A stretch of DNA of 55,273 bases from positions 1-55,273 of IMG/VR virus record IMGVR_UViG_3300047157_000034. One strand, given 5' to 3'. A model generated the notes under the pieces. The model was given only the letters and a program-made list of their open reading frames with translations. It was not told the DNA's origin and did no database searches. Positions within the stretch are counted from its first letter, which is position 1. Each line of letters begins with the position of its first letter. A program made the translations under genes and the position numbers. This stretch comes from a virus. Taxonomy: Duplodnaviria > Caudoviricetes. This document shows positions 4,527 through 23,567 of the stretch, one piece after another.

Positions 4527-4562
4527 CAAATAACCTCCCTGTTGGCTACGCCAACCACCTCA

Positions 4563-4591
4563 GCCCCCGATCCCAGTTCGGGGGTTTTTTT
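4563..4591 (+). terminator. rho-independent terminator closing the late arm
   Basis: stem CCCCCGA / TCGGGGG with a 7-nt loop, followed by T7, at the point where the two arms converge. Confidence 0.85.
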
Positions 4592-7444: not shown

Positions 7445-7480
7445 TATACACCTCCATATTGTGTCTATGTGTTAAAAGTA

Positions 7481-7508
7481 TGGTAGCCGAAAACAATCCG
7501 ACTACCTA
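7481..7508 (-). terminator. hairpin (possible weak terminator or processing site) between SSB and primase
   Basis: minus strand GGTAGTCGGA-TTGTTT-TCGGCTACC followed by ATACTTTT. Confidence 0.4.
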
Positions 7509-7524
7509 GATTTTTTGGCAGAAA

Positions 7525-8263: not shown

Positions 8264-8282
8264 AGTAGTCTCCTCTTAGGTT

Positions 8283-8798
8283 TTAGTGGATATATCCATC
8301 TGTTTTTTCGAACCGTGAATAAGAACGCATAGACAGATGTTTTATAGAATTAAGCTGAGCGTCATTTAAAAAACGAACAAGCCTAAAAGTTAATAGATCA
8401 TAGTTATCCAAGGGCTGTACATTAATAAACGTTACAACACTTTTCAGACCATAACCTCTGCTCGAAAGTGACTTCTCATAAGTTCGAAAAGAACGCAAAG
8501 AAGTCGATGGTACACGTAACATAAGAACGTGGCTTGGCTCGTCGAGTACAAGTAGTTTAAGCGCGGCGTACTCTGTACAAGCTTTTGCACGTTTTCCGTT
8601 AGGTGTAATTCTTGAACCCCATGAATTTTTAGGGCATGCGGCACATTGTTTAGATTGTGGCGTAATACTTTTTTCTGATGGAGTAATACCATTAGCTGAA
8701 ACACATGTAAGCTGTTCGTCATCTGCGTAGTAAGCCCGCATATTATCCATAGCTTTAGTAATTACTGCTTCAACTGGAGGTTCTGCAATAGTTAACAT
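8283..8798 (-). CDS. conserved phage protein with Cys4 motif (putative DNA-binding/annealing)
   Basis: C.S.NG..P...C..CP.N.WGS....GK..KAC and VPSTSLRSF motif. Confidence 0.55.
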   Translation of the reverse strand: MLTIAEPPVEAVITKAMDNMRAYYADDEQLTCVSANGITPSEKSITPQSKQCAACPKNSWGSRITPNGKRAKACTEYAALKLLVLDEPSHVLMLRVPSTSLRSFRTYEKSLSSRGYGLKSVVTFINVQPLDNYDLLTFRLVRFLNDAQLNSIKHLSMRSYSRFEKTDGYIH

Positions 8799-9220
8799 TA
8801 TTTACGCCTAAAGTTTACAACTTGAGTTTCACTGTATTTTGTCCCAGGAACTATCTCTCCATGCACTTCAGCATATTCTTGGGCGGATTTCTTATTAGCC
8901 CTATGCTCAAGTAGTTCCCATGCTTCATTCTTTTTGACGTGCTTTAGAAAAATATCCCAATCGTCTATCGTTACCGACGACCGTGTAGATCTGTACGCTG
9001 TACCGTAATCACGAGAAGATACGTTATCTATACCGCGTTCGTTGAACCGACGTAGAAATTCTACTTCAATTCCAGATTGTTTTTCTTTATCCGTAGCATC
9101 GTCTGCGTCGAATGCCGCTTTTCGTTGTGCGCGTCTATCACGTAACTTGATAAACATTTGCAACAAAGATTTATCATCAAGATCAGACGCTTTCAATTTC
9201 GGCGCTATCTGTATATTCAT
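8798..9220 (-). CDS. conserved phage hypothetical protein
   Basis: Likely start MNIQIAPK at 9220 (AAGGA upstream); helical N-terminus and DDW..F motif typical of replication-module genes. Confidence 0.6.
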   Translation of the reverse strand: MNIQIAPKLKASDLDDKSLLQMFIKLRDRRAQRKAAFDADDATDKEKQSGIEVEFLRRFNERGIDNVSSRDYGTAYRSTRSSVTIDDWDIFLKHVKKNEAWELLEHRANKKSAQEYAEVHGEIVPGTKYSETQVVNFRRK

Positions 9221-9401
9221 GGTTACTTTCCTTCTTTTTGATTGTAAGCCATCTTTCGATGTCATTTTCGTCCCACCGAAGGATTTTGGGAGATACTTTG
9301 ATGGGGGCGGGGAAACTAGTCTCTCGTCTACGTAATTGGTGCAACGCACCTTCAGAGAGTCCTAGTTTTTCTGACAACTGTGCAGTGTTTAAAAGATTCA
9401 T
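9183..9401 (-). CDS. AlpA/excisionase-family winged-HTH regulator
   Basis: LLNTAQLSEKLGLS...FPAPIKVSPKILRWDENDIERWL. Confidence 0.85.
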   Translation of the reverse strand: MNLLNTAQLSEKLGLSEGALHQLRRRETSFPAPIKVSPKILRWDENDIERWLTIKKKESNHEYTDSAEIESV

Positions 9402-9426
9402 AGTTCACCTATTTTTAATGATATGT

Positions 9427-9468
9427 GTTAACATATAAACACATACAAGAACAAATGCTTTAGGTCAA
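9427..9468 (-). promoter_or_regulatory. putative sigma70 promoter and GTNNAC operator upstream of the AlpA gene
   Basis: TTGACC-17 nt-TATGTG on the minus strand; GTTAAC-AT-ATAAAC at 9427-9440. Confidence 0.45.
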
Positions 9469-11036
9469 GCTATTAAATGTTCTCGGTGGGCTTTTACTTC
9501 ATCAAGTAATAAACCTTGCAGTCGTTGTTTCTTTTGTAGTCGTGCATAGATACGATGTTCAACTGGTGAACCCTCTAGCATGATAATAAAGTTGTTCATC
9601 TTCTGGCCTGGCCTGTTGATGCGACCGTTGGCTTGCTCAAACGTTTCATTACTAGTTACGCAACTATACCATATTATAGTGCTTGCGGCAGTCAGAGTTA
9701 AGCCGTGGGACATAGCCGCAGGCTGAGCAACTAAAACTTTAGGGTCTTTACTAGATTGAAATGCTTTAAATATTCGGTCACGCTCATTCTTTTTAACGCC
9801 ACCGTGTATTACTTCCACGCTAAAATCCTTAGCAAGTTCTTCTGCTACCATTTTTACTGATGATACATAAGGCACAAATACTATAACTTTACCCTCTGCC
9901 GATTGAATTATTGATCGTGTTTCGTCAATACGAGGTGTAGCAGGGAGAGAAACTTCTGTTCCATCGTTGGCGTACACAACACCACAAGCTATTTGTACAA
10001 GCTTTCCCATCTTAACTGCTTCGTTGACGGCTGTGATTTCACCTTCGTCTGCTTCTGTTCGCAGTTTAGTTACCATATCTTTGTAGGCTTTATTCTGTTC
10101 AGTAGTTAACTGAACACTGCGTGTTTCAAACATAACAGGTGGTAGGTCTAAGCACTCGTCGCGTGTAAACCGTACAGCAGGTTGCATAACGTTACGTACG
10201 ACGTCGGTTGCTTCGGGTCTAGGTATCCATTGAAACTGTGTTAGTTGCTTCATAACTTGCGCTTTAAATCTACCGAAGTATGGTGGTACATTTTGCGGAG
10301 ACACTAACCTACACTGCGCCCAAGCGTCTGTCGGAGCATTTGGAGTTGGCGTACCAGACATAGCCCAACACGCTCTAGGTTTTGCGTGTCGATTAACTAC
10401 TGTGTTAATAGCTTTCCATTTTGCCGTTCCTGCGTTACGGGCACATTGTGCAACTTCGTCTACAATAACAAGATCTATATCAGGTCTGTTCTTTAGTTGG
10501 GACTCAATAATCCCAACACCATCATGGTTTATGATATACACATCAAAGTCATGTTCTAGTAACTGAAGTCTTTTCTTCTTAGTTCCGTGCAATACACCAA
10601 AAGTTAGGTGCGGAAAATGATTAAACAATTCGTCAGCCCAAGTGCGTTCGAGTGTCGATAGTGGAGAAATAACTAACGCCTTGTTAAATTGACCGACACT
10701 TTTTAGATAATCGTACGCCCATAATGATGCTAGAGACTTTCCAGTACCTAGCTCGCTTAAGTTAAATGCACGTTTGTGAGTAGATAGAAAAGCGGCGGCT
10801 TCCATCTGTGCTTTGAAAGGTGTGTACTGCCCCGACCATTTATAATAAGTTTTAATAGGCGCAGGAGCGTTGTATCCTAAGTTTCGTAGCAAGATTGTTT
10901 CGGCTGTTTTGTGGGGAACAGCGACAAGAGGATTACCTCTAACATTAATTTGTTTTGCGCTTGGTACGATATTAAGTATTTTTTCTGGAGCTTTAGTTTT
11001 TAATATCAACGCTTGTTTATCTTGCCATACTAGCAT
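9465..11036 (-). CDS. SNF2-family (SF2) helicase
   Basis: ELGTGKS, IVDEV, MSGTP, HGLTLT and QANGRINRPGQ motifs. Confidence 0.92.
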   Translation of the reverse strand: MLVWQDKQALILKTKAPEKILNIVPSAKQINVRGNPLVAVPHKTAETILLRNLGYNAPAPIKTYYKWSGQYTPFKAQMEAAAFLSTHKRAFNLSELGTGKSLASLWAYDYLKSVGQFNKALVISPLSTLERTWADELFNHFPHLTFGVLHGTKKKRLQLLEHDFDVYIINHDGVGIIESQLKNRPDIDLVIVDEVAQCARNAGTAKWKAINTVVNRHAKPRACWAMSGTPTPNAPTDAWAQCRLVSPQNVPPYFGRFKAQVMKQLTQFQWIPRPEATDVVRNVMQPAVRFTRDECLDLPPVMFETRSVQLTTEQNKAYKDMVTKLRTEADEGEITAVNEAVKMGKLVQIACGVVYANDGTEVSLPATPRIDETRSIIQSAEGKVIVFVPYVSSVKMVAEELAKDFSVEVIHGGVKKNERDRIFKAFQSSKDPKVLVAQPAAMSHGLTLTAASTIIWYSCVTSNETFEQANGRINRPGQKMNNFIIMLEGSPVEHRIYARLQKKQRLQGLLLDEVKAHREHLIA

Positions 11037-11038
11037 GT

Positions 11039-11308
11039 TTAACCTTTCTTCGTATACATAGATGGGCGTGTTTTACGCCAACCTTTATTTACCTTCGCAC
11101 TTACTACTCTTGTGTTGGATTTGGCAGTACTTCCCCCTGCATCAAGAGGTACTTTGTGATCTATGTGTTTGCCGTCACCTTTTTTAACACGTCCATCACG
11201 TAATGCCTGCCGTCGAACTTTGTTATTGGCGACACGTTTCTTCTGGACACTGGGTTTTTTATTATACCTAGCTTTGGTTGCTAGTTCTTTCTTTGACGAT
11301 TTTTTCAT
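11039..11308 (-). CDS. small HNH endonuclease-like protein
   Basis: KHIDHKVPLDAGGSTAKSNTRVVSAKVN. Confidence 0.75.
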   Translation of the reverse strand: MKKSSKKELATKARYNKKPSVQKKRVANNKVRRQALRDGRVKKGDGKHIDHKVPLDAGGSTAKSNTRVVSAKVNKGWRKTRPSMYTKKG

Positions 11309-11597
11309 TGTGCACCTCTATAATTGTTTTCACTTGCTCAACACAGTCTACCACATGTGCCACCCCATTAGCACGTCTAATCTCGTCAATCTCACGTTTT
11401 TGATTAGCCGTGACGTTATTGATCTTACCAAGAGCTTTAGTTTCAAACGCCATAAAGTGTCCATCTAAGCACACAAGAATATCAGGGCAACCTGATCTAC
11501 CCATGCCGTTAGACACAGGCATATAGTACCAAGCCCCAATAGATTTTAGATACTCTTTAACTTTTTTCTTTACTTTACCTTCGGGAGTTGTTGCCAT
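11268..11597 (-). CDS. VRR-NUC domain nuclease (probable resolvase)
   Basis: TPEGKVK...GCPDILVC..G.F.AFETKA..TANQ; likely start MATTPE at 11597. Confidence 0.88.
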   Translation of the reverse strand: MATTPEGKVKKKVKEYLKSIGAWYYMPVSNGMGRSGCPDILVCLDGHFMAFETKALGKINNVTANQKREIDEIRRANGVAHVVDCVEQVKTIIEVHNEKIVKERTSNQS

Positions 11598-11601
11598 AAA
11601 A

Positions 11602-12267
11602 TTACTGCCCGCAAAATTCGCATAATGATTTACCAACAGGACACCAGTTTTTACATAAACCAGATGGTTTTGGTAGCCACTTATCAGTTTCGTAAGAGTG
11701 CGCTAATCTATTTAGTCGAGGTAAAAAATTATTCCAAATGTCTGGTAACTGTTCACGAGTAAACTTTTCTTTATCAAACTTTTCTACTTTTAACCATATA
11801 AAACCAGTTACGACATTGGTTATCCAAGGATACATAGCAAAAGCTAAAGCCGCAAATAGTTTTAGTTGGTCGTTGTCAGGTCGATGTTTACCTGTTTTCC
11901 AATCTAACAAATAGGCAGTGTCCGAACCAACTACACCAATATCAATTATGCCACGTACCCATACATCTTTTGCCATCCATGTAGTCTGGCGAAAGTTCTT
12001 TGTGAGAGCAACGCGTTCTTCTACTACTCGCTTACCTTCTAACTTTTGTATCTTTCGTACATATCTACCGTATTCTTTCATAGAATCAGGTAAAGGCTTC
12101 TGACCTTTTGCGTATAGTTCAAGAGCTTTGTGTACTTCGTTACCCCATCTCGTCGCTTCAGTCTGTGCTTCTACTACTTGCTTTGTTACCCTTGTAAGTT
12201 GGTAACGCTTTGGGCAAGTCTCGTATGAAGTTAGAGCTGAATAACTCCAAGGGTGTTTTAGTTCCAA
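11602..12267 (-). CDS. PD-(D/E)XK (RecB/Cas4-like) exonuclease
   Basis: WSYSAL..YETCP, GIID...LLDWKTGK, QL.LFA, LCKNWCP..CEFC. Confidence 0.88.
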   Translation of the reverse strand: MELKHPWSYSALTSYETCPKRYQLTRVTKQVVEAQTEATRWGNEVHKALELYAKGQKPLPDSMKEYGRYVRKIQKLEGKRVVEERVALTKNFRQTTWMAKDVWVRGIIDIGVVGSDTAYLLDWKTGKHRPDNDQLKLFAALAFAMYPWITNVVTGFIWLKVEKFDKEKFTREQLPDIWNNFLPRLNRLAHSYETDKWLPKPSGLCKNWCPVGKSLCEFCGQ

Positions 12268-12293
12268 AATGGAGCACTCCTTTTTTATATTTC

Positions 12294-12330
12294 TGTACGT
12301 TTATATGCATACATGTAAACACATTGCAAG
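12294..12330 (-). promoter_or_regulatory. putative sigma70 promoter with GTAAAC motif in the spacer
   Basis: minus strand TTGCAA-18 nt-TATAAA; AAGGAG SD downstream. Confidence 0.5.
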
Positions 12331-12332
12331 GA

Positions 12333-14258
12333 TTATTTTGCACTTCCGTAACTATCTGCAATGTCACCTTCGCTCCAAGTTACTAACTCAGGCCACCAAT
12401 CAGGAGGTGTCCTCATTATAGACTGAACGTCGTCGAGTACTCCCTGGGCCCTGGAAGCGGGAACGACGTAGACGAGTTCATCATGCACCATGAGTGCAGG
12501 ATTTAAACCAAGAACTTGTTGTACAGTTATTGCATTGTCAGCAATCACACATCTGGCTAAGTGTTGAACTATATTCTCGTCTATCTTCCCTGCATAAATT
12601 CTAGCTTTGTTACGACCATGACCATACCACCACTCTTGTTGGTTGTGTTCGTCGTCGTACTCTATGCGCAAGTCAGGGTAACGTATAATACCTTTAGGCG
12701 TTTTCAGTCCGTCGGGGGTAGGGATTACCATACCCCACGGATCGACGGCACTACCCTCTGCACCTCGCATAATTGTCGGTAAAGATTTATGGCATGTGCG
12801 CCACCCTGCACAGATTTCGTTATACTCATATCGCCATCTGTCTACGATATCTCTGCTTTCATCTTCTGTTAGGTCTACACCGCCCATAAGTTTAGCAACC
12901 TTCTGAAATGTGACATGCCCTGCCCCAAATCCAAGCCCTAGATGTGCTACCTTACCAACTTGTCGTTGCTGTTTAGATACATCTTCTGGCGGTATCTCGT
13001 ATAGTTTACTAGCAAAGTCTTTGTATAAGTCAGCTTTCTCAGGATCATTCTGAAACATTTCTACACTAGATGGAACTTGCCATAAGAAGTGGTTAACACG
13101 TAATTCTATGCCGCTAAGATCGGCAACCACAACTTTGTAGCCTGAAGGCGCACGCAACGACGACCGCAACGCATCGGACGGCTTTGGGTTGTATGGATTG
13201 ATACGTGGTAAGTTCTGTGGATTATACCCCCAACCAGACCACCTACCAGTAGTATCAGCCCCATAGTATTTTAAAGGTATCGGTACTTTTGTATCAGGGT
13301 GTGCGTTAGCCGCGTCTATAAACGCCTGTATACGTGTTTGTAGGATAGTGGACTTCGCGTCGAGGCGGGCTGCAGCAACTGTAGCGACGAGCGGATTTTC
13401 GTGTTCTTGGAGTGCTAGGAAGTCTTCATCAGTTTTTGCTAACGCAGGAATTTCTTTACCAGTAGCTATAGAAATTTTAGTAGGAACTTGTACTCCCAAG
13501 GTCTCCAAGAACGCCTTAAATTTATTCGCTGATGCCAAAACTGTCAAGCTTTCTTGGGCGGCTTCGTCGTCCGTCATCTCTTCAGATCTTACACCCATAA
13601 CGTCAGCGGCTTCTACTAACATCGCCTGCTTACGAGCACTTTCATCAGCTAACGTGTTAATCAGTAAATCCATATCTACATTAAACTGTGGTTCGATTAA
13701 CATTCGTATTGTCATGTCGATTAATTTTATCTCGTCTTTGCGTGACTGCCTGATGAGTCGTGTAAGTAAATCGTAGCACTGGTCAACGTCAGCGGCGTTG
13801 TAGTACCGCATGTCCGCCACTTCATCGTCGGTAAAATCAGCAAGCCGTTTACCTTTTGTTGCGACTAACACAGATTGGTCTTTGAACCCTAACTTGTAAT
13901 GTTGAACAAGTTTAGCCAAGGATAGCCCCACATCTTTTGCGTGGATAGGTCTAGCCATTGCGAGGGTACAGCCCCATAGTTTGGGTTTTATTCCTAGTCG
14001 CCACGATAGTATCATAGCGTCAAAGCCAGATAGGTTATGCCCTACCACCCAATACTCTGACCAATCTGTGTTGTCGCAGATGTCACGTACCTGCTGTTCC
14101 CCAAACGCGACGACAGTTTTCTCTTCGCCAAATTTAAACGCGCAAGAGATTATCTCCGTGTCAGGGTGCATACAGTACGCAATGGGCGACATCTTAGTAA
14201 GCGAGTGACCAACCGCCCAATAAGTTTCTAGGTCAACTACTGCTATCTTCACTCTCAA
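12333..14258 (-). CDS. polA: family A DNA polymerase with 3'-5' exonuclease domain
   Basis: ExoI DLET, ExoII HNLSGFD, ExoIII YNAAD; TTGRWSG; motif A ADLSGIELR, motif B RQVGKVAHLGLGFG, motif C VHDE. Confidence 0.95.
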   Translation of the reverse strand: MRVKIAVVDLETYWAVGHSLTKMSPIAYCMHPDTEIISCAFKFGEEKTVVAFGEQQVRDICDNTDWSEYWVVGHNLSGFDAMILSWRLGIKPKLWGCTLAMARPIHAKDVGLSLAKLVQHYKLGFKDQSVLVATKGKRLADFTDDEVADMRYYNAADVDQCYDLLTRLIRQSRKDEIKLIDMTIRMLIEPQFNVDMDLLINTLADESARKQAMLVEAADVMGVRSEEMTDDEAAQESLTVLASANKFKAFLETLGVQVPTKISIATGKEIPALAKTDEDFLALQEHENPLVATVAAARLDAKSTILQTRIQAFIDAANAHPDTKVPIPLKYYGADTTGRWSGWGYNPQNLPRINPYNPKPSDALRSSLRAPSGYKVVVADLSGIELRVNHFLWQVPSSVEMFQNDPEKADLYKDFASKLYEIPPEDVSKQQRQVGKVAHLGLGFGAGHVTFQKVAKLMGGVDLTEDESRDIVDRWRYEYNEICAGWRTCHKSLPTIMRGAEGSAVDPWGMVIPTPDGLKTPKGIIRYPDLRIEYDDEHNQQEWWYGHGRNKARIYAGKIDENIVQHLARCVIADNAITVQQVLGLNPALMVHDELVYVVPASRAQGVLDDVQSIMRTPPDWWPELVTWSEGDIADSYGSAK

Positions 14259-14529
14259 CCTCCTCTAGTTTATCTAAAACTCTTCTAAGATATCCTCTTG
14301 TCAAGCCTGCACTATCAAACGCCGCTTTCAAATTGATATCATCAATAGGTGATATTCTAGCTTTTTGCTCAGTAGGCTCTTGTACAGTTGAGCCAACCTT
14401 GTGTGCGTTAAGGAACTCAAGCAGTGTAGGCTTATCCGTTGGCACTTCGACTTGCTCAAACTCACCAAACTTTTTAGCGTCAGCTTGTGTGCCTGCCCAC
14501 CTACCTTGGTTATCTGTGTATAGTTTCAT
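14233..14529 (-). CDS. hypothetical protein
   Basis: coupled to neighbours by overlaps; GGAGG SD. Confidence 0.6.
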   Translation of the reverse strand: MKLYTDNQGRWAGTQADAKKFGEFEQVEVPTDKPTLLEFLNAHKVGSTVQEPTEQKARISPIDDINLKAAFDSAGLTRGYLRRVLDKLEEVESEDSSS

Positions 14530-14810
14530 TATTCATCCTCCAGTTCGCACTCGTAGGCGATGCCCGTATACGCCATGATGTCGACGTAATGATCTTTCTT
14601 GAGTGGGCTTGTACGCTTACGAGCAAGTTTAGTTGCTATGTGGAATATAGGAACATCTGATGCTTTAAGTTGATGACCAGTTATAGCGTTAAATATATTT
14701 GCTATGTGAGTCATGTTATCAACAGGATTACCATATTCCTTATTACGATCTCGCGATGTCAGAGCAGACGCTTCCGACAGAAGATCACACCGATTAGCTT
14801 TTTTATCCAT
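14529..14810 (-). CDS. DUF6378-like all-alpha protein
   Basis: DRNKEYGNP.DNM..IA...KLAR.....KKDHYVDIMAY pattern. Confidence 0.7.
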   Translation of the reverse strand: MDKKANRCDLLSEASALTSRDRNKEYGNPVDNMTHIANIFNAITGHQLKASDVPIFHIATKLARKRTSPLKKDHYVDIMAYTGIAYECELEDE

Positions 14811-14813
14811 CAG

Positions 14814-15134
14814 TTATAGTGCCGTGTACAACCATACTGAAAGAACGCCAACTATGACTAGCATAATTATCGCCTGTACTGTACGACCGCCCCACGTTTT
14901 ACCGCGTGCAACTGGCTCTCTCATAGGAGCAGACATTATAGACTTCTCAAAGTCGTTCTGTTCTTTAAGTGCTTCAGCTTCAAATACTTCTCGCGGAGTG
15001 CCTATATTTTTCATCAGTTTGTGGGCGTAGGCGTATGATACCCCAGTAGCCCGCGCAACTTGTGCAGGCGTGGCTAACTTGTTCTTGAGTAAATACTTCC
15101 ACACCTTGTCTGATTTTTTAGTTTTCTTAGCCAT
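14814..15134 (-). CDS. HTH-containing protein with C-terminal TM helix
   Basis: ATPAQVARATGVSYAYAHK HTH; hydrophobic C-terminus. Confidence 0.6.
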   Translation of the reverse strand: MAKKTKKSDKVWKYLLKNKLATPAQVARATGVSYAYAHKLMKNIGTPREVFEAEALKEQNDFEKSIMSAPMREPVARGKTWGGRTVQAIIMLVIVGVLSVWLYTAL

Positions 15135-15135
15135 T

Positions 15136-15444
15136 TTATTTATCTCCTGTTACTAAGTGTTTTAATTTTTGCATCTCTGGGTTGTTACGCATTTTACGCA
15201 TACCTCTGGCTTCAATTTGACGGACACGTTCTTTAGAAATGCCAAACAATTTTCCAATAGCACTAAGTGTCCAACCTTCCTCGTTCGGCATATCAATACC
15301 AAAACGCATCTTAACAATAATAAGTTCTCGCTCGGTTACATTACCTGATTGATAACTATCTTTACTTAGTCTTCCTGTTTCTAACTCTTTTAAAGTTTCG
15401 TCAGAAAAGACTTCGTATTGTTTATACAGATCGCCGTAAACCAT
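15136..15444 (-). CDS. stand-alone sigma-70 region 4 domain protein
   Basis: TERELIIVKMRFGI....WTLSAIGKLFGISKERVRQIEARGMRKMR matches RpoD region 4.1/4.2. Confidence 0.88.
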   Translation of the reverse strand: MVYGDLYKQYEVFSDETLKELETGRLSKDSYQSGNVTERELIIVKMRFGIDMPNEEGWTLSAIGKLFGISKERVRQIEARGMRKMRNNPEMQKLKHLVTGDK

Positions 15445-15447
15445 GAC

Positions 15448-16152
15448 CTATCCTGCTGATGCTATTTGATGTGCAACTGCCGCGCTTGTCAACGCATCGA
15501 CATCTATATCCAATTCCTCTTTAGGAGCAGGAGTAGCCGCTTTGCCACGTGGTGGCGACGGAGCGTGAAGTTTCTGTATATACTCGTCAGGCACATAATG
15601 CTCTATCTCTGGCATGGCTTTGATAGCCGTATTCAAAGACGAGTGTTGATTCATAAACGATTTCAGTTGCTCACGAACTTTGTCAAACTTTGTCTTGATG
15701 CCTGCCCTTGTAGCTTCATTAGACTTACCGCCTTTAAACCAAGCCATAACAATAGGTGGTATGTCGCTCTCCGCAAAAGTAATTTTAGTATTATTATAGT
15801 AACTACCTGTATTGGGGTCAAAATGCTCTGGCGATAAACAGAATGGTTTGTCTTCTCTCTCAATAGTCACTCGTAGCCTACCACTCTCAGGGCAGTCAAC
15901 AGGCGGTTCTATAGTAACGTCTACACGTTTTGAGCGTGCTAAACGTGATGACCACTCGCTTGGCATTTTATCTCTTAGCTCTGGTGCTAGCTTCCATGAA
16001 ACTGTCTCTATCGCATCAGATAACGCTTTATACTCTGCGCTATTTTCTGTGACTGTCGCAGTCTCGTAAGGTTTTTGCGCAACACGAGACATATCATCTA
16101 CCTTAGATAATATCTCGTGTACAAGTGTGTCAGTTTTTCTTACATAAGCCAT
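15448..16152 (-). CDS. hypothetical protein, Nmad5-like C-terminus
   Basis: SSLNTAIKAMPEIEHYVP motif; AAGGAG SD. Confidence 0.5.
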   Translation of the reverse strand: MAYVRKTDTLVHEILSKVDDMSRVAQKPYETATVTENSAEYKALSDAIETVSWKLAPELRDKMPSEWSSRLARSKRVDVTIEPPVDCPESGRLRVTIEREDKPFCLSPEHFDPNTGSYYNNTKITFAESDIPPIVMAWFKGGKSNEATRAGIKTKFDKVREQLKSFMNQHSSLNTAIKAMPEIEHYVPDEYIQKLHAPSPPRGKAATPAPKEELDIDVDALTSAAVAHQIASAG

Positions 16153-16175
16153 ATGTTTCTCCTTTTTGGCTAGGT

Positions 16176-17351
16176 TTACGCATCGACATCAAACTCTATT
16201 ACTTGACCCCAATCAAAGTCGGGGCTATGAGTCGTGAGCCATACAGTGTCGTGCTTGGATGTGAAGTCGTTCTGATTGCCGTAACCATCAGTAAAATAGA
16301 CAACGACTTCGGGGTCTAAATCATGTTCATCAATATAATCGAAAACAGGATCAAACGCAGTACCACCTCCTCCATGCGGAGTTAGTTTGATTGGAAACTC
16401 TTCGGGTTCGTAAGTATCTACGTGTGCAACATCTGCGTCGCAATATATAACTGTCACAGACTTTGGATTGCACTGCTCGATTATCCTATTAACGTGTCCA
16501 CCAAATACATTCAGTTCTTCTTGTCTAATAGAACCTGATGTATCTATACCAAACACCACGTTACCCATGCGTGGGACGTAGTCATCTCCAGGGAGGTAAA
16601 GACCACGACCGATAAACCTACGATTAGGTCTTTTCCATGACCTACCATCTTTTAGCTTACTATTGAAGTATCGCTCTAGTTTATCGTACCAAGGTGTTTT
16701 TACGTTAACCAACTCGTCTATCATACGCTCGAGAGATGCAGGCAACTTACCCTTCTGCTTGGCTAGAGTCGCGGATTGTATAGCTTCGACCTTGGCTTTG
16801 GCTTCTATCTCTTTTACCTTACTCTCATCAAGTGGCTTACCCTGAGCATCTACAGGATCACCTATGTCTAAGCCAATACCACCGCCTGCTCCACCACCAG
16901 TATCTTCTGGTGGATCGTTGTACAGTTCTTCGGTGGCCTTATCTCTTGCACCATCAAAGTGACAACCACCTTCTATGAACTTACCGACTTTGGCGTCTAT
17001 AAGAGTATCGTTGATAACTAAGTCAGCGGATATGTTCCACATCTCAGGATCACGTGCGCCACGTCTTGTTGAATGGCATAGCATAAAGTGCATAGCTTCG
17101 TGTGCTAATAGAAAAATAGTATTCTGCAAGGGGTCTGGTAGGTGCGCTATGAAATGTGGGTTAAGCCGCATCTGCCCTACAGCGTCCATCGACGCAGTTT
17201 GTGTGTCGTAATCATATATAATAGTACGCTTACTCACAGCCATACCAAAGAAGGGGTGATGCAATATCAACCTCGCTTTGGCTTTAGTAACTAAGTCTTC
17301 CACCTTCTTTTGTTCTGGTGGTGACAATGGTTCTGGTATTTGGTCAAACAT
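16176..17351 (-). CDS. metallopeptidase + vWA domain protein (DUF2201-like)
   Basis: LLAHEAMH zincin, WNISADLVIN, MIDAS IDTSGS, GGGGTAF, YFTDG; likely start MFDQ at 17351 (TAATG overlap). Confidence 0.9.
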   Translation of the reverse strand: MFDQIPEPLSPPEQKKVEDLVTKAKARLILHHPFFGMAVSKRTIIYDYDTQTASMDAVGQMRLNPHFIAHLPDPLQNTIFLLAHEAMHFMLCHSTRRGARDPEMWNISADLVINDTLIDAKVGKFIEGGCHFDGARDKATEELYNDPPEDTGGGAGGGIGLDIGDPVDAQGKPLDESKVKEIEAKAKVEAIQSATLAKQKGKLPASLERMIDELVNVKTPWYDKLERYFNSKLKDGRSWKRPNRRFIGRGLYLPGDDYVPRMGNVVFGIDTSGSIRQEELNVFGGHVNRIIEQCNPKSVTVIYCDADVAHVDTYEPEEFPIKLTPHGGGGTAFDPVFDYIDEHDLDPEVVVYFTDGYGNQNDFTSKHDTVWLTTHSPDFDWGQVIEFDVDA

Positions 17352-17494
17352 TATAACCTCTCTTCTTTCTGCCATTTTTCATGTATAGCTTCTGCCATAC
17401 ATCTGGCGGTTAAACCTTCACGTTTTTCTATTTCGTCAAACGCTTGGTCGTTTGTCATGTCTTCGAGAAGACTACTCAACAACTCTTCTATCAT
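17351..17494 (-). CDS. 47-aa hypothetical protein (not in ORF track)
   Basis: MIEELLSSLLEDMTNDQAF...; ATGA and TAATG overlaps at both ends. Confidence 0.6.
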   Translation of the reverse strand: MIEELLSSLLEDMTNDQAFDEIEKREGLTARCMAEAIHEKWQKEERL

Positions 17495-18543
17495 AACACC
17501 AAGCCTTTCATTTTACCCATTAGGCTCTCAATGTCAGTCTTAGCTTGCGATCTAGCATTAGGGCTATGTCGTATGATCTCTTTACTTCCTGCTAGCCCTG
17601 AAGCGAGGGTGTTTAACTCAGTAATCTGTTTTCTAATTACTGGGTCGTCACTGAGACAGACTCGATTCATACGATCTGCAACCTCTACCATATTGTCGAT
17701 CAAGCTATCTCTAAACACAGAGCCATCTTCGCCTATAGGTATAGATAGTTTTTTAACGGCTTCGCCTAATGGTTTAACCATCTGCTCTACTACATGAGTA
17801 GCCGCCGTCGTCTGCACATCGTCCAGCTGGCGCTGTAACGACGACTTCTCTGCATCAGACATTCCGAAACGTGGGTCAAAGTCATCTACTTTAGGTATCG
17901 GACTATACTGCACGTCGATTGAGAAACGAGACCGCAAATCATCTACATCAGGATAGTCATTTATATTGGCAAGATCAGGATTACCTTTTGCATTACCTAT
18001 CTGCTGAATACGTGCAAAATCAGTCTGCACAACTTGATCCCAATTATCGCACAAAGTATCAATTGATGCATAAGCGTCGTCGACGAGGCCGCGCAGCCCC
18101 GATGTAAAATCGCTCCACGTCATCATGTTTAACATGCGTTGGCCTACTGCCCAAGGGACTGTGTTGTCGTTGACGTAAGTATAGACCGCCGTAAACTTAG
18201 CAACTGTTCGCTTGACAAGATTGTCTCGCCCATCAAACAGATGTTTATTAACACGGCCTGCACCATACTCTTCTGTTGCCGAAGCATCAGAGATGTAAGG
18301 GCGATACATACCACGCTTAAGCGTAACAAGGATTGCTTTCTCGTTGAGCGGTTTAACCTCTATCAACTGGCGAACAGGTTGTTCAGTTGGTAGTTTTTGG
18401 TTTGGTACGGGGCAGGGCTCATCAGCGACTACGTCGTCGTTTTCCGTACCAATCCCCACGTTGCCACCACTGTCGATGCTAGCTGATGAGTCGTCACTAT
18501 GCTTGAGCGCATCAGCTAAGGCTTGTTGTAATAACATATTCAT
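17491..18543 (-). CDS. DUF3150-like conserved phage protein
   Basis: DYPDVDDLRSRFSI, TVPW and VFRDSL motifs; typical partner of AAA/vWA genes. Confidence 0.6.
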   Translation of the reverse strand: MNMLLQQALADALKHSDDSSASIDSGGNVGIGTENDDVVADEPCPVPNQKLPTEQPVRQLIEVKPLNEKAILVTLKRGMYRPYISDASATEEYGAGRVNKHLFDGRDNLVKRTVAKFTAVYTYVNDNTVPWAVGQRMLNMMTWSDFTSGLRGLVDDAYASIDTLCDNWDQVVQTDFARIQQIGNAKGNPDLANINDYPDVDDLRSRFSIDVQYSPIPKVDDFDPRFGMSDAEKSSLQRQLDDVQTTAATHVVEQMVKPLGEAVKKLSIPIGEDGSVFRDSLIDNMVEVADRMNRVCLSDDPVIRKQITELNTLASGLAGSKEIIRHSPNARSQAKTDIESLMGKMKGLVL

Positions 18544-18554
18544 TTACTTTCCTC

Positions 18555-19562
18555 CTATTTAAATATGTCTTGGTTCTTAACTGCATACTCAGTAAACGCT
18601 TTGGTTGTCTGAATTGCAGGGTTCATTTTGAGTGCGTCAGTTAGATACACAACTGCAAACTCTTTGGGCATACGTGTCACGTACTTCATATCAACCTCAA
18701 AGCTATCTACTGTTGATGTCACAGACAAAGACGTTGCTACTGCGTAACGTACCGCAGGCTCTTTGGGTGTCTCCGTCGTCTCTGGATGCATTCTAATGAC
18801 GTCGATGTTAGGCATTTTTGACATCATATCTTTGGCCGCTACCCATTCAGCCGCCGCCCCTTCACCAACTTTACCCTCACATGCCATAAGATAAAGATCA
18901 GATGGTAGATCAGATGGTACTTCAGTGAATAGCTTAGTCCATGATCTCTGCGTAGGATTACTACGCCTACTAGGATCATAGTCATTCAGAAGATTAGGGC
19001 GTAGTCGCAAGAACGCTATGCCAAGTGGATCAACGTCATTCTCTAACGCCCAAGCACACCAGTCGTCGAGAGATGTCTCAACATCAAAGTGATACATGCG
19101 GTCGTTAAGGTGTCCTAACAACGGCTTCGCCCCCGCTCTGTCTTCGGCGCGGTTGCCAGTAGCGATGATGCACACATCTTTATCTAACTTAAAACATGGT
19201 GTTTCACGCTCTAACATAAAGCCTGCCGCCCATGTCTGGTGATGCAACGACGATTGATGCAATTCTTCCAAGACAATTAACCCACCGCCAGTGCCTTCGC
19301 GAAAATCGTAAAACATTTTAGATGGATTAAAGATTGTCATGCCGTCGTCGGTGACACTAGGTACACCAGTGAAGTCAACGACATCATGGTTGTTGATATG
19401 CACAACTAAGATGCGATCATCAGAGAACCCTAGTGCTTTACCTATTTGAACACTTACGTCGCTCTTGCCTTCCCCAGGTTTACCGACGATGTCGACAACA
19501 ACCTTGGGTGATTTTTGGTACATAGCTACCGCAGTAGCTTTGATTTGGGATATAGAACCCAT
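18555..19562 (-). CDS. MoxR-type AAA+ ATPase
   Basis: Walker A GKPGEGKS, Walker B LIVLEE, ATGNR..D, NDRM, PTQRSW; GGAGG SD before MGSISQ. Confidence 0.9.
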   Translation of the reverse strand: MGSISQIKATAVAMYQKSPKVVVDIVGKPGEGKSDVSVQIGKALGFSDDRILVVHINNHDVVDFTGVPSVTDDGMTIFNPSKMFYDFREGTGGGLIVLEELHQSSLHHQTWAAGFMLERETPCFKLDKDVCIIATGNRAEDRAGAKPLLGHLNDRMYHFDVETSLDDWCAWALENDVDPLGIAFLRLRPNLLNDYDPSRRSNPTQRSWTKLFTEVPSDLPSDLYLMACEGKVGEGAAAEWVAAKDMMSKMPNIDVIRMHPETTETPKEPAVRYAVATSLSVTSTVDSFEVDMKYVTRMPKEFAVVYLTDALKMNPAIQTTKAFTEYAVKNQDIFK

Positions 19563-19584
19563 ATTTACCTCCATTTAGTTTGAG

Positions 19585-19654
19585 TGTGTATAAACGTGTT
19601 TAAATAATGTTACATGTAAATACACGTAAACATCTAAACTGTCAACACGTTTAT
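19585..19654 (-). promoter_or_regulatory. promoter of the AAA operon overlapped by several GTNNAC-type repeats
   Basis: TTGACA (19645-19640)-17 nt-TATTTA; GTAAAC, GTCAAC, GTTTAT, ATAAAC and CTAAAC copies. Confidence 0.6.
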
Positions 19655-19714
19655 GGATAGACAGTTTGAATTAGCTGGCTGCGAGCTGTAACCACGACGG
19701 CTCTTCTCTTACAT

Positions 19715-19888
19715 TCACAGTGTTTCTTGTTGAACTTTAACTTCAATACCAAGTGATTTGACTAATGATATGACGCGGTCAGTCAGCGTCGTCGTTCCCG
19801 CAACTTTGGCGAATGTGTGAGCACGTTGGCAAACAGGATAAATAACTCGGTTGCCATAGTTGTTTGCGATGCGTACCGTTATGCTCAT
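19715..19888 (-). CDS. 57-aa hypothetical protein (not in ORF track)
   Basis: MSITVRIANNYGNRVIYPVC...; GGAGG SD; ATGA overlap. Confidence 0.7.
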   Translation of the reverse strand: MSITVRIANNYGNRVIYPVCQRAHTFAKVAGTTTLTDRVISLVKSLGIEVKVQQETL

Positions 19889-20247
19889 GCTACCTCCTCC
19901 TGAAATTGTGACAACACGTCGTTAATCAGTTCATCAGTTAAAGTCTTGAGGTTGCGATGAGTCGTACTAGAAACTATGCAGTGTTGAGCATAGGCCGTCG
20001 AACACTGAGCATCATGTGCAGTGTACTTGGTAAACTCTGAAATAACGAAAGTACGCATAGCCTTTAGGTCGTGTCGGTGCGCGTTTACATATTCTCTATT
20101 ACGCAACCCATGATCTTGTCCAAGGTAAGAACCCTCTATCCAACAGCCAAATAGACTACGCGTTATGTGGTTGCAGTCAGTCAAGATTGCACCGCTTAGA
20201 TCGGACATGATGCGACCCTTTACGGTGTCGCGATTAAATGTATTCAT
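19885..20247 (-). CDS. hypothetical early protein
   Basis: AAGGAGG SD; coupled to the downstream gene. Confidence 0.7.
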   Translation of the reverse strand: MNTFNRDTVKGRIMSDLSGAILTDCNHITRSLFGCWIEGSYLGQDHGLRNREYVNAHRHDLKAMRTFVISEFTKYTAHDAQCSTAYAQHCIVSSTTHRNLKTLTDELINDVLSQFQEEVA

Positions 20248-20256
20248 ACTACCTCC

Positions 20257-20388
20257 TTACCCACCAAAACCGTAGGCTATAAAATTTAATAATACTGGTA
20301 TTGCTATGACGATAAGAAATGCACCTAATGATGTTGTGATGATTTCCCACCATGTCATGCTTGATAAGATTTCTTTGATAAGTCTCAT
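20257..20388 (-). CDS. 43-aa membrane microprotein (not in ORF track)
   Basis: MRLIKEILSSMTWWEIITTSLGAFLIVIAIPVLLNFIAYGFGG; AGGT SD. Confidence 0.6.
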   Translation of the reverse strand: MRLIKEILSSMTWWEIITTSLGAFLIVIAIPVLLNFIAYGFGG

Positions 20389-20403
20389 GTTGCACCTATT
20401 AAT

Positions 20404-20477
20404 TGGCAGAGGTTGTAGGAATTGAACCCACATCTACAAGGTTGGAACTTGTCGTGTTACCATTACACTAAACCTCT
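20404..20477 (-). tRNA. trnW: tRNA-Trp (CCA)
   Basis: Acceptor stem AGAGGTT/AACCTCT with G-CCA 3' end encoded; D-loop AATGGTA; anticodon arm ACAAG-TTCCAAC-CTTGT; T-loop GTTCAATTCC. Confidence 0.93.
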
Positions 20478-20483
20478 ATGTGT

Positions 20484-20752
20484 GTGACGTTTGTTACTTA
20501 TGACGTTGCATTATGACGTTACGATAGTTGTAAGCCATTGAATACAAAGCGTTATGACGTTATGACGGACTAAAAGAGTAACAAGTAGAATTGTTGAACG
20601 TGTGGCAAAAATTGTACTACTGGCACACATATTTAACATTTTGGTATTCTTCTATATTAACGTCATAACGTCATAACGTCATAAAGGTCATACTAAATGG
20701 CTGTTTTTATTGAACATTTCATTATGACGTTTCATATGACGTTATGACGTTT
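20484..20752. repeat. iteron-like (TT)ATGACGT array, putative replication origin
   Basis: about 11-12 copies of an 8-bp unit in both orientations around an AT-rich spacer. Confidence 0.7.
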
Positions 20753-20758
20753 GTATGA

Positions 20759-21253
20759 TTAAGCAACTTCTCTTAGTTCTACAGTGTTAGAACCTTCGCG
20801 ATACTCGCTTAGTGCTCTGATCATAGCTTCTATTTGATCTGGGTGCTTCTTGAACTGTGTAGCCGCCCAAACTTTAACATCGAAAGGCTTCTCTTCTACT
20901 TCAGCCTTAGGTGGATCTATGTGCCACTGTTGGACTTCAGTAAAAAGATGCAAACAGAATGCTTGAACATCGTCAAACTCTGTGACTCTCTCGTTCTTCT
21001 GTTTTTTGTTAAGGGTGTACTGGCTCTTCTCTTTGTTCCAAGTCACTAACCCGTTGTCTTTTATCCAACGTTTGATGCGTTGTTGATTTATGCCGTTAGT
21101 CGCATTTATTAATCTTGTGAAGTACGTGGCATCACCATGTTCAAATGCATACCCTGCCGCGTTGCAAAGTACTTCGTGAACATTCTTTCTGATAGCTTCC
21201 GACGACTTTCTGATGCCACCAATTTTAACTCCCATTTGCTTAGATGTAAGCAT
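20759..21253 (-). CDS. hypothetical first early protein
   Basis: GGAGG SD; 164 aa. Confidence 0.75.
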   Translation of the reverse strand: MLTSKQMGVKIGGIRKSSEAIRKNVHEVLCNAAGYAFEHGDATYFTRLINATNGINQQRIKRWIKDNGLVTWNKEKSQYTLNKKQKNERVTEFDDVQAFCLHLFTEVQQWHIDPPKAEVEEKPFDVKVWAATQFKKHPDQIEAMIRALSEYREGSNTVELREVA

Positions 21254-21275
21254 AGTATATCCTCCGATTAGGTTT

Positions 21276-21325
21276 AAGGGTTGTGGTAATATGCACCTGA
21301 GTGATGCACATTATATAAACCCCTT
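21276..21325 (-). promoter_or_regulatory. long RNA hairpin in the early leader, RNase III site-like
   Basis: AAGGG...TAATGTGCATC-ACTCA-GGTGCATATTA...CCCTT, with G-U pairs only on the minus strand. Confidence 0.45.
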
Positions 21326-21645
21326 CAGGTTTATTATGGCCGCCGAACTTAATCGGTGAGGAACCTATTCATCGCACTAGGTGTGCGCTAGGTATCATGC
21401 GTGCGATTACACGCGTCCTATCCCATCTACTAACGGCCCCAGCTCTCTACCCACACCTACGCACTTGTCACGTGCTACGCCTTTCGACTTGCCTATGGTT
21501 TATCCTCGTCAGAGGGCATGCGCTCCAATCCATTGCGCGTAAATAATACGCTCGCAAAACTGTCACACGAATACCCTGAAGCATCTTCCGAAGGAGTAAC
21601 CTTAATTCCCGTCCTAAGACCTGAGGGCTTTCAAACTCCTTACTA
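21324..21645 (-). ncRNA. candidate large structured ncRNA of unknown family
   Basis: nested long-range stems, at least five hairpins and two possible pseudoknots; wobble pairs favour the minus strand. Confidence 0.55.
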
Positions 21646-21653
21646 CTGGCGCA

Positions 21654-21707
21654 GGGGAAATGGAGAGGGGGAGGGGCCGATGGGGTGGCCCCCCAGCCCC
21701 AGCCCTT
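21654..21707 (+). other. G-tract/C-tract element upstream of terS (possible packaging or terminus site)
   Basis: four runs of at least 4 G followed by C6, C4 and C3; strong GC outlier. Confidence 0.45.
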
Positions 21708-21776
21708 ATGTAGTCCGTATATCGCAACCCCTATTTTTTACTAATGTTCCCCTTTTGTTCTACGTCATGCAGTTTC

Positions 21777-21811
21777 TTGACGAAAATCTGTGTATCTGTT
21801 ACTGTGTGCGT
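21777..21811 (+). promoter_or_regulatory. sigma70-type promoter for terS (apparently leaderless)
   Basis: TTGACG-17 nt-TACTGT-6 nt-ATG; no SD. Confidence 0.65.
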
Positions 21812-22162
21812 ATGAACGAGCGCGTAAATCATGTTATTGATCCGACAAAGGTAGACCAACCTATCTTAACCTCTGCTGAACTGGCCAAGATTGAGGAAGA
21901 TCCCTCTTTAATGGAGACTGTTGCGAGGCTGCTGGGGGCTGTAAACCTCGACAATTTGTTTCGCACCATGCAAAACCCTGAGATAAATCCAACTGCGCGT
22001 ATAGAATTTCAAAAAATGCTTAATAAAATGGGCCGACTAGAACCTGACACCAAGGCAGATGTCTCTGGGCAGGGCCCGCAAGTTGTAATCAACATTACAA
22101 GAGCCAAAGACCAAGACGATGCGATCACGATAGAAGGGCAACCTATTCCAGATGATGCATGA
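21812..22162 (+). CDS. terS: terminase small subunit (putative)
   Basis: Immediately precedes and overlaps terL; C-terminal QVVINI strand; start MNERVN just after the promoter. Confidence 0.7.
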   Translation: MNERVNHVIDPTKVDQPILTSAELAKIEEDPSLMETVARLLGAVNLDNLFRTMQNPEINPTARIEFQKMLNKMGRLEPDTKADVSGQGPQVVINITRAKDQDDAITIEGQPIPDDA

Positions 22163-23567
22163 AATTAATTTCGAGGTTATAGAAAGCCTTGATGAGTTCT
22201 TTTACAGCAAAAAATTTATTTCGTTGGCGGTGGGCCCCGTAGGATCGACGAAAACTACAGCTGGAATAATGAAAATCTTACACCATGCAGCGTTAATGGC
22301 CCCATGTAAGGACGGAATTAGACGTTCCAGAGCGATTTGGGTGCGAAATACGCGAGAACAGCTGCGCGATACGTCCATTCCTGACTTCCTAAAGTGGATT
22401 CCAGACGGAGTTATGGGTAGTTTTCTTAAAACTGAGTACAAATTCCTGCTAAAAGTAGGCGATATTGAGTGCGAAGTGCTGTTTAGGGGCCTCGACGACG
22501 CCAACGACGTACGTAGATTGCTGTCTTTACAGGCTAGTTTCTTCGTATTTGACGAGTTTAGAGAGATACACCCCGACATTTATAACGCTGCACAGGGTAG
22601 AATAGGCCGATATCCCGATAAAATGATGAATGGGGTGGGATGTCAGACAGATGACGGAGAACCTAACATGCACCTCTGGGGCATGACAAACCCCCCTGAT
22701 ATGGACACATATTGGGAAGATTTGCTTACAGAACCCCCTGAAAACGTCCATGTGACGATACAACCAAGTGGTTTAGCCCCTGAAGCAGACTGGACACAGT
22801 TCCTACCTGATGATTACTACGACAACTTAGCCCAAGGTAAGACTGAAGACTGGATTGATGTGTATATACACGCTCAGTTTGGTAAGTCTTTAAGTGGGCA
22901 ACCTGTGTTTAGATCGTTCGACAGGGCAGTACATGTGTCTAAGACAGAGCTAACGCCTATGTTCACAGATTCTTCTCTTATAATCGGTGTAGACGCGGGG
23001 CTGACGCCTGCTGCAGTAATCGGCAACGTCGCCTACGACGGTCGCCTGGTAGTCTACGACAGTCTTATCTCTGACGGAATGGGGGCGCTACGCTTTGTAA
23101 GAGAGCGACTCAAGCCCCTTCTTGTGAATAAGTACCCTGGGCGTAGGGCGCTGATAATAATTGACCCAGCGGCGTTCCAACGCGTGCAGACGGATGAACG
23201 TACGGTAGCTGACATATATAAAAACGAAGGGTTTACTGTAAGACCCGCTCGTACTAATTCTGTAGCTGCAAGGATTTCTGCTGTAGATAAGTACATGACT
23301 AGAATTGTAGACGGTAAATATGGTTTTCTTGCTTGCCCTACCCATGCGACAAATTTGATACAGGCGCTAGCGGGTAAGTACCGTTACAAAATAAACACCA
23401 AAGGTGTACGAGATGAGAAGCCAGAAAAATCCCACCCCTGGTCAGATGTGGCTGATGCGTTTCAATACATGTGTTTACATGCTGACGGCGGTGAGGTATT
23501 TGGAGCGATGAACTTTTCGAACCAAAGGAAATCAGTTGTCAAAGTTTCATCTGGCGGCTGGACATAA
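22152..23567 (+). CDS. terL: terminase large subunit
   Basis: GPVGSTKT Walker A, VRNT, FVFDEFRE Walker B, MTNPP, nuclease IGVDAG and SDVADAFQY. Confidence 0.95.
   Translation: MMHEINFEVIESLDEFFYSKKFISLAVGPVGSTKTTAGIMKILHHAALMAPCKDGIRRSRAIWVRNTREQLRDTSIPDFLKWIPDGVMGSFLKTEYKFLLKVGDIECEVLFRGLDDANDVRRLLSLQASFFVFDEFREIHPDIYNAAQGRIGRYPDKMMNGVGCQTDDGEPNMHLWGMTNPPDMDTYWEDLLTEPPENVHVTIQPSGLAPEADWTQFLPDDYYDNLAQGKTEDWIDVYIHAQFGKSLSGQPVFRSFDRAVHVSKTELTPMFTDSSLIIGVDAGLTPAAVIGNVAYDGRLVVYDSLISDGMGALRFVRERLKPLLVNKYPGRRALIIIDPAAFQRVQTDERTVADIYKNEGFTVRPARTNSVAARISAVDKYMTRIVDGKYGFLACPTHATNLIQALAGKYRYKINTKGVRDEKPEKSHPWSDVADAFQYMCLHADGGEVFGAMNFSNQRKSVVKVSSGGWT

Follow-up and report, generated by a model that had tools for sequence, protein, structure and literature searches.

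The question raised by this locus is what occupies a 515-nucleotide (nt) gap at the very start of the early genes of an uncultured marine phage. The gap lies in IMG/VR record IMGVR_UViG_3300047157_000034, a single viral record of 55,273 bases whose completeness is rated 96% and which is referred to in its entirety as the window. It separates a minus-strand gene arm, beginning with the gene at 20759-21253, from plus-strand terS and terL. A sequence-only reading of this stretch had proposed that the minus strand encodes a large structured RNA where the early arm begins, in a region more GC-rich than the genome, and had named covariation among homologues as the decisive test. The region is indeed GC-richer (0.50, compared with 0.414 for the whole window), and the test is positive in the 3' domain, in the upstream P_x domain and in the closing arms of the middle domain (Table 1), which bears out the proposal. 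Our comparison indicates that the minus strand from 21287 to 21641, and maybe as far as about 21702, is a conserved multi-domain RNA of about 360-420 bases. We hold with moderate confidence that this element serves the early (replication) operon as a structured 5' leader acting in cis, which would protect and tune the early transcript.

The search for homologues began from terL relatives in IMG/VR, which provided 80 loci. The intergenic DNA of the closest relatives consists of near-identical islands interrupted by variable, indel-rich stretches, and a search pattern was built from two conserved islands. The pattern identified 24 stretches in viral contigs (14 true and 10 chance matches) and 47 in metagenome contigs (12 true and 35 chance); the chance matches were dropped. 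After removal of duplicates the family comprised 22 distinct homologues, each on a viral or metagenome contig of marine origin. Bacterial and archaeal genomes contributed 18 matches, every one of them due to chance and none matched by covariance model R1, built from the 3' domain (131 positions, 30 pairs). R1 matched the window, 10 of the 79 terL loci and 13 pattern loci, and gave no further members. With matches so limited, the family appears to be confined to a subset of one marine phage group. In every member with flanking sequence the first early gene follows the RNA element, its homologues in relatives beginning MLT(S/T)K immediately past it. The first early protein is only 30-50% identical between family phages whose RNA core motifs stay invariant.

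A structure for the 3' domain was predicted with RNAalifold from a plain MAFFT alignment in the minus-strand reading, and its seven helices, with 37 pairs, were counted on that same alignment. Pairing is found in 92.3% of 607 alignment cells, compared with 74.5±1.0% for shuffled controls, and 29 of the 37 pairs vary on both sides, compared with 15.7±1.9; none of 500 shuffles reached either value. When the 3' partners were slid by 1-3 columns, pairing dropped to 26-55%. The compensatory changes exceed both kinds of control, as is characteristic of conserved structured RNAs in general. A blind scan of the alignment for column pairs yielded mostly noise.

Compensatory change is found throughout the helices of this domain. 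All 8 counted pairs of H_a vary on both sides across 19 sequences, the mismatches being G·U in the minus-strand reading, and H_b is present in all members, with variants AACC/GGUU, ACCU/AGGU and AAUCC/GGAUU. P3a is a long-range 4-bp helix in which each of the 4 pairs shows 3-5 pair types (AU/GC/UA/GU/CG). In H_c, the pair at alignment columns 134:170 is GC in 11 sequences and AU in 8, and in relatives the loop is enlarged by insertions of 11-38 nt. Those of medium length give a small stem with a GAGA or GAAA tetraloop on the minus strand only, and the long ones an extra covarying stem with a conserved nine-base loop, UGAnAUUAG. The outer helix of H_d varies on both sides at 4 of 4 pairs and is 98.2% paired; the inner helix does so at 4 of 5 and retains a conserved mid-helix G·U on the minus strand. 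Six of the 7 pairs of H_e vary on both sides, with variants GAGCG/CGCUC, GUACG/CGUAC and CCGCG/CGCGG.

Upstream, the P_x helix varies on both sides at 7 of 7 pairs and is 93.3% paired, compared with 70.8±2.6% for shuffled controls (0 of 500 as high) and 41-68% for slid controls. For the middle domain MAFFT and RNAalifold predicted no pairs, the arms being misaligned, and an anchored arm test was used instead. Perfect 6/6 complementarity of the closing arms occurs in 7 of 17 distinct own pairs, compared with 3.8% of 262 cross pairings. The interior of this domain varies by lineage; in the window it contains hairpins at 21461-75 and 21513-77 and a small hairpin with a GAAA loop at 21480-89. Motif B and motif A4, on either side of the middle domain, may be joined by a short long-range helix in which GYCG of motif B pairs with CGG of A4 (21434-36/21588-90). 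L009 shows a double change at this pairing, AGGC with GUCU as against CGGC with GUCG, and in the window a U to C change converts a G·U pair to G-C. The candidate 5' extension is conserved in position, and the arms of its hairpin are complementary on the minus strand only, with two G·U pairs in relatives, of which the window has one as G-C. Since RNAalifold finds no consensus fold for the GC-rich part at 21646-21702, the extension and motif C are treated as uncertain members of the element.

Table 1. Positions of the RNA element, its parts and flanking features in the window, in plus-strand coordinates
Feature	Position	Strand	Description
First early gene	20759-21253	minus	164 amino acids; ATG 21253-21251; Shine-Dalgarno GGAGGA 21265-21260; from the list of open reading frames (ORFs)
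H_a	21287..21313	minus	Hairpin, 9-bp stem 21287-95/21305-13; about 35 nt upstream of ribosome-binding site
H_b	21315..21334	minus	AUAAACC/GGUUUAU, loop UGAAGG (RNA sense); stem 21315-21/21328-34
3' domain four-way junction	21336..21426	minus	Closed by P3a 21336-39/21423-26; holds H_c, H_d and H_e
H_c	21343..21356	minus	Hairpin 21343-48/21352-56
H_d	21363..21393	minus	Outer helix 21364-67/21389-92, internal loop, inner hairpin 21373-77/21383-87
H_e	21397..21416	minus	Hairpin GCGUG/CACGC, conserved hexaloop UAAUCG (RNA sense)
Motif B	21427..21440	minus	GGGGCCGUUAGUAG in window, GGGGUCGUUAGUAG in relatives; nearly invariant columns
Variable middle domain	21441..21583	minus	85-190 nt across family; weak closing helix 21442-45/21579-82 in window
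Motif A4	21584..21590	minus	CGGAAGA in window, CGGCAGA in relatives; conserved in 22 of 22 members
P_x domain	21591..21641	minus	7-bp helix 21591-97/21635-41; encloses conserved internal-loop strands UGAAAGCCCUCA and GGGAAUUAAGGUU and small hairpin 21611-13/21618-20
Candidate 5' extension	21646..21702	minus	C-rich, G-poor tract (RNA sense) and GC-rich hairpin, base GGGCUG/CGGCCC
Motif C	21703..21731	unassigned	29-nt conserved block, unique in genome

Comparison among homologues revised the architecture first read from the window. The stems listed in the sequence-only reading all exist there, and about half are conserved. Its hairpins at 21343-21356 (H_c), 21373-21387 (inner H_d) and 21399-21414 (H_e), together with its separate 5' domain AAGGAGT/ACTCCTT, which is the P_x helix, are kept with compensatory change, and its hairpins at 21461-75 and 21533-57 are present in the window, within the variable middle domain. 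The closing stem placed at 21570-80/21324-35 occupies bases of conserved hairpin H_b, and the element starts at 21287 instead of 21324. A stem at 21433-38/21338-43 is absent from relatives, the nearby covarying helix being P3a, and TAGG at 21389-92, given a partner at 21417-20, pairs instead with CCTA at 21364-67, where it covaries. An 8-bp crossing pairing, TAGGTGTG/CACACCTA, between the inner hairpin of H_d and the middle domain is real in the window and not conserved: among 16 members an 8-nt match occurs in two, in different registers, and the other 14 are at chance level (mean match length 4.9 nt for own pairings and 4.7 nt for cross pairings). Comparison lends support to neither of the two crossing pairings that had been proposed as pseudoknots. 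The suggestion of a ribozyme, drawn from CUGACGAG...CGAAA, fails as well; these bases lie in the variable domain and are absent from most homologues, no hammerhead model matches the locus, and by eye helix II does not form. A suggested link to packaging gains no support: the RNA runs away from terS, and the promoter-like site of terS is found past the element, downstream, on the opposite strand.

Folding energy by itself gives little indication of this structure. The stretch marked out by the earlier reading has a minimum free energy of -102.6 kcal/mol on the minus strand (z -1.57, with 10 of 100 dinucleotide shuffles as stable) and a z of -0.35 on the plus strand, so that by energy alone it is not beyond chance. 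For the core, 21286-21645, z is -2.9 and none of 30 shuffles is as stable. We take the structure as real because of the comparative evidence.

The element is absent from known RNA families. We searched with the 4227 covariance models of Rfam 15, which include transfer-messenger RNA (tmRNA), RNase P, 6S, riboswitches, GOLLD, ROOL, HEARO and IMES RNAs. At gathering thresholds the whole window matched tRNA only, and at E<=10 the interval 21100-21900 gave three sub-threshold chance matches, the best with 19.9 bits against a threshold of 35.2. Ten relatives' loci gave nothing on the element, and six more, searched at E<=5, gave no match. The earlier view that the RNA is novel, and neither a tmRNA nor a known riboswitch, accordingly holds for the window and for these sixteen loci; ARAGORN, too, reports no tmRNA, its only prediction being tRNA-Trp at 20404-20477. 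The sole match among the ten loci is a Hammerhead_II in L013 (2023-2092, minus strand; 41.3 bits, gathering threshold 37), downstream of the first early gene of that phage. Nucleotide searches of the GenBank phage collection gave no match, and a literature search found no paper describing the RNA. The accessible portions of PMC5737381, PMC6918029 and PMC9038755 make no mention of it, and in that of PMC9038755 the word "noncoding" does not occur. By these searches the element is a new RNA family, function unassigned, matching none of the Rfam families.

The strand of the RNA is apparent from several lines of evidence. In the minus-strand reading the seven helices contain 53 G·U cells versus 12 A·C cells, in 13 versus 5 pair columns. 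Reading the plus strand instead lowers pairing in the 3' domain from 92.3% to 85.5%, and the RNAalifold energy is -113.8 for the minus strand and -97.4 for the plus strand. A promoter-like site for terS, TTGACG-17 nt-TACTGT, is found at 21777-21814, with 6 nt before the ATG at 21812, so the terS messenger RNA (mRNA) would be nearly leaderless in the window. Relatives are alike (TTGACA or TTGACC, then TAGCAT or TAACGT), and the consensus, TTGAC-N16-17-TAnnnT, lies downstream of the RNA element on the other strand. The wobble asymmetry, the GNRA loops, the RNAalifold energies and the position of the terS promoter-like site all argue that the RNA runs towards the first early gene.

A scan of 21150-21900 found no terminator-like site between the element and the start codon of that gene. 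The element is contiguous with the first early gene's mRNA, which makes it, to the extent that sequence can tell, a leader and not a gene standing alone. Nine RNA-labelled public runs from six studies contain 6-10% of the sampled words of 20400-22600. Contigs from four of the RNA-library runs, representing four studies, match the window with at least 99% identity at 21101-21251, 21229-21379, 21382-21592, 21415-21626 and 21424-21581, and the second of these bridges the element and the coding sequence across the start codon. The four runs include no pieces over 20400-21100 or 21627-22600, gaps which are not evidence of absence. We regard the cover of 21101-21626 as a hint of expression.

As a leader, the RNA would be made by host RNA polymerase transcribing leftward, probably from a start near 21702-21735; the host enzyme is assumed because no phage RNA polymerase gene was found among the genes of the window. 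In 5' to 3' order the transcript would fold into P_x, a short long-range helix (CGGCAGA/GGGGUCG), the variable domain with its covarying closing helix, a four-way junction of P3a with H_e, H_d and H_c, and then H_b and H_a, which stop about 35 nt short of the first early gene's ribosome-binding site. The invariant single-stranded motifs could form a docking surface for a conserved host machine, such as polymerase, Rho or the ribosome. Docking would spare a 450-nt untranslated leader from termination or degradation and would set the output of the early operon. That the core motifs are invariant while the first early protein drifts to 30-50% identity suggests a conserved partner, probably of the host. 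We infer cis action on the carrying transcript from the layout, which resembles that of other phage early-operon leaders in having a long structured untranslated region, a small first gene and no phage polymerase.

The closest parallels in position are lambda nutL, in the N leader, and the HK022 put RNAs, which are 15-70 nt long with one or two hairpins and act in cis on the transcribing polymerase. Like these, the present element is sense-strand sequence, placed after the early promoter region and ahead of a small first early gene. It differs in length (360-420 nt), in possessing two multi-way junctions and nine or more conserved helices, in having no match in the Rfam scan, whose coverage of nut and put is unverified, and in having only weak terminator-like sites downstream. 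Position is all that it shares with a put-like processive antitermination RNA.

Several observations weigh against a cis-acting leader. The case for cis action is one of position. A sigma-70-like promoter was looked for on the minus strand at the locus and was not found, no conserved helix covers the Shine-Dalgarno sequence, and no expression platform was recognised. The terminator-like sites on the minus strand of the early arm are all weak (for example, 7506-7482), so nothing there requires an antiterminator. The RNA-library contigs are strandless and may include DNA carry-over; no start site, 3' end or strand is directly observed. The structure was derived from the same sequences on which pairing was counted, and the 22 homologues group into few lineages, so that alignment cells are not independent. 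Finally, folding-energy z averages -1.07 for the minus strand and -0.60 for the plus strand over 13 members; several are at zero, and the window (-2.9) and L118 (-3.2) alone are distinctive.

The main rival, which we consider possible although rather unlikely, is a stable trans-acting RNA of about 350-420 nt, cut from the mRNA or overproduced, that would serve as a sponge, decoy, scaffold or catalyst in the manner of GOLLD and ROOL. According to the accessible text of two reports, GOLLD and ROOL occur near tRNAs and in phages (PMC5737381; 10.1101/2024.12.08.627333). The present element resembles them in being large and phage-borne, with many domains, near a tRNA gene (0.8 kb upstream of that for tRNA-Trp, in the same transcription unit), with no protein partner evident from sequence and without known function. 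In size, in its multi-way junctions and GNRA loops and in its invariant loop motifs it is typical of the large ornate RNAs, and RNA-library contigs from three studies lie within it, over 21382-21626. However, neither a terminator nor a recognisable processing site precedes the first early gene, one RNA-library contig joins the element to coding sequence, and discrete RNA ends are not readable from the contigs. The element also differs from GOLLD and ROOL in lacking any similarity to their Rfam models at the permissive cutoffs given above, in being smaller, in being fused to an mRNA leader and in being found only in marine viral and metagenome contigs.

A broader idea, put forward tentatively, is that the element represents a novel class of large phage RNAs, some 400 nt long and independent of phage proteins, that would act directly on a conserved host machine. 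It could take either of two forms. One possible form is an RNA-only device whose C-rich 5' tract and invariant junction motifs capture or exclude Rho or RNA polymerase, allowing a 17-kb early operon to be transcribed from a single start. The other, also possible, resembles GOLLD and ROOL: an ornate RNA, either self-assembling or catalytic, produced in quantity early in the infection of abundant marine bacteria.

It is improbable, in our view, that the leader senses a ligand or factor in the manner of a riboswitch or attenuator, with GGGGUCG of motif B switching between CGGC and an upstream CGGUCCC and so gating Rho at the C-rich tract. Rho-dependent leaders responding to Mg2+ or flavin mononucleotide (FMN) provide the comparison; as in these, a structured 5' leader carries invariant junction nucleotides and has a C-rich, G-poor tract, here of about 50 nt, upstream. 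Motif B does have two possible conserved partners, the CGGC that shows the double change in L009 and CGGUCCC, with which both wobble pairs become G-C in the window. However, each alternative rests on one lineage, and the sequence is GC-rich, so complementarity often arises by chance. The element matches no known aptamer class and to our knowledge exceeds any known aptamer in size, being much larger than riboswitch and attenuator leaders, and it has neither a terminator in 21150-21900 nor a conserved helix that would sequester the Shine-Dalgarno sequence. A further candidate for alternative pairing is an 11-nt inverted repeat (21264-74/21346-56, 10 of 11 complementary) by which the stretch adjacent to the Shine-Dalgarno sequence could pair with the 5' arm and loop of H_c. 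As a family feature this pairing was rejected: matches of 7-8 nt occur in many members but in differing places, and we estimate that about one 7-nt match per sequence is expected by chance.

That the conserved unit is DNA, namely a replication origin, packaging site or operator array whose hairpins are protein-bound inverted repeats or extruded single strands, seems very unlikely. The locus does lie between divergent gene arms, adjoining terS, next to G-tracts and to motif C, which is unique in the genome (position-weight-matrix score 43.6 bits; next-best site in the window 9.1 bits) and, with up to 6 mismatches, is present at 46 of the 80 terL loci, many more than have the RNA. In addition, L080, a relative without the RNA, has ACGTCATA-type iterons at the equivalent place. 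On the other side, long-range helices closing multi-way junctions covary, which sites in double-stranded DNA would not need to do; wobble pairs are strand-asymmetric and GNRA loops confined to one strand; hairpin loops tolerate 11-38-nt inserts with covarying stems of their own; the window has no iterons; and the stretch is present in RNA libraries. A separate comparator is the replication primer transcript RNA II of ColE1, which resembles the element in being a structured transcript of about 500 nt beside G/C tracts and upstream of replication genes. The present RNA differs in being the C-rich strand over the G/C tracts, and no origin is mapped here.

Least probable of all is a plus-strand RNA leading the late terS/terL operon: that strand runs towards terS, its G-rich, C-rich and then T-run sequence (21651-21740) resembles a large terminator or attenuator and a few pairs (12 cells) are G·U on it only, but it pairs less well, places a conserved A·C in the middle of inner H_d, would give loops reading UCUC or UUUC, shows a folding z of just -0.35 and precedes a terS promoter-like site that stands directly before a nearly leaderless gene.

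In bacteria and phages, large RNAs that carry many conserved helices are uncommon, and those that have been explained are ribozymes, riboswitches or unusual assemblies. The present family has a fixed place in uncultured marine phages, right where the early genes begin, and its sequence occurs in ocean RNA libraries from several studies. If it does control early transcription with neither a phage polymerase nor a known antiterminator, it would be a new mode of takeover of host transcription; if it is a free RNA, it would be one more of the few large ornate RNAs known. In either event, the covariance model from this work allows the family to be traced in ocean viromes.

Motif C may be a promoter, the RNA 5' end, a packaging site, another DNA site or an origin. 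GGG(C/G) and a GC-rich hairpin come after it in every case, and G-tracts adjoin it on the plus strand (C-tracts in RNA sense; 21646-21735). Inspected by eye, motif C did not read convincingly as a -35/-10 pair, as a sigma-54 site, as an extracytoplasmic function (ECF) sigma site or as a promoter of phage-polymerase type. At the equivalent place L080 carries an ORF-free stretch of about 900 nt (2640-3600, minus strand) that shares the 5' motif. This stretch is rich in hairpins, several with GNRA-type loops, has about ten ACGTCATA-type repeats near the first early gene, and may be a second, different leader RNA, or an origin.

The first early protein belongs to PHROG 1448, which has no assigned function. 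An Atlas search matched viral hypothetical clusters only. Its AlphaFold model has a mean predicted local distance difference test (pLDDT) score of 83.8; the best Foldseek E-value with it was 0.75, with matches scattered across winged-helix regulators, and the VIA wide structure search returned generic helical folds only (Z <=5.5), so none of these four sources gives a functional assignment. A 67%-identical homologue, P0014, lies on a 28.7-kb contig that NCBI labels as a Porticoccaceae metagenome-assembled genome (MAG), and this label may be a weak hint of the host group.

The minus-strand arm (4590-21253) includes genes for DNA polymerase A, helicase, primase, exonuclease, a small sigma-70 region-4 protein and tRNA-Trp, and the plus-strand arm, from about 21812 onward, those for terS, terL, portal, capsid and tail. 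Identity of terL to the closest cultured relatives is below 40%. Assignment to phages of HMO-2011 type was rejected, as the window polymerase is without the CXXCXGXG motif described for that group in the accessible part of PMC6918029. The sigma-70 protein, of 102 amino acids (15136-15444, minus strand), consists of little beyond region 4 (Pfam E 3e-15) and may redirect host polymerase. A strong terminator-like hairpin of 9 pairs followed by a T-run is found at 4562-4586, where both gene arms converge.

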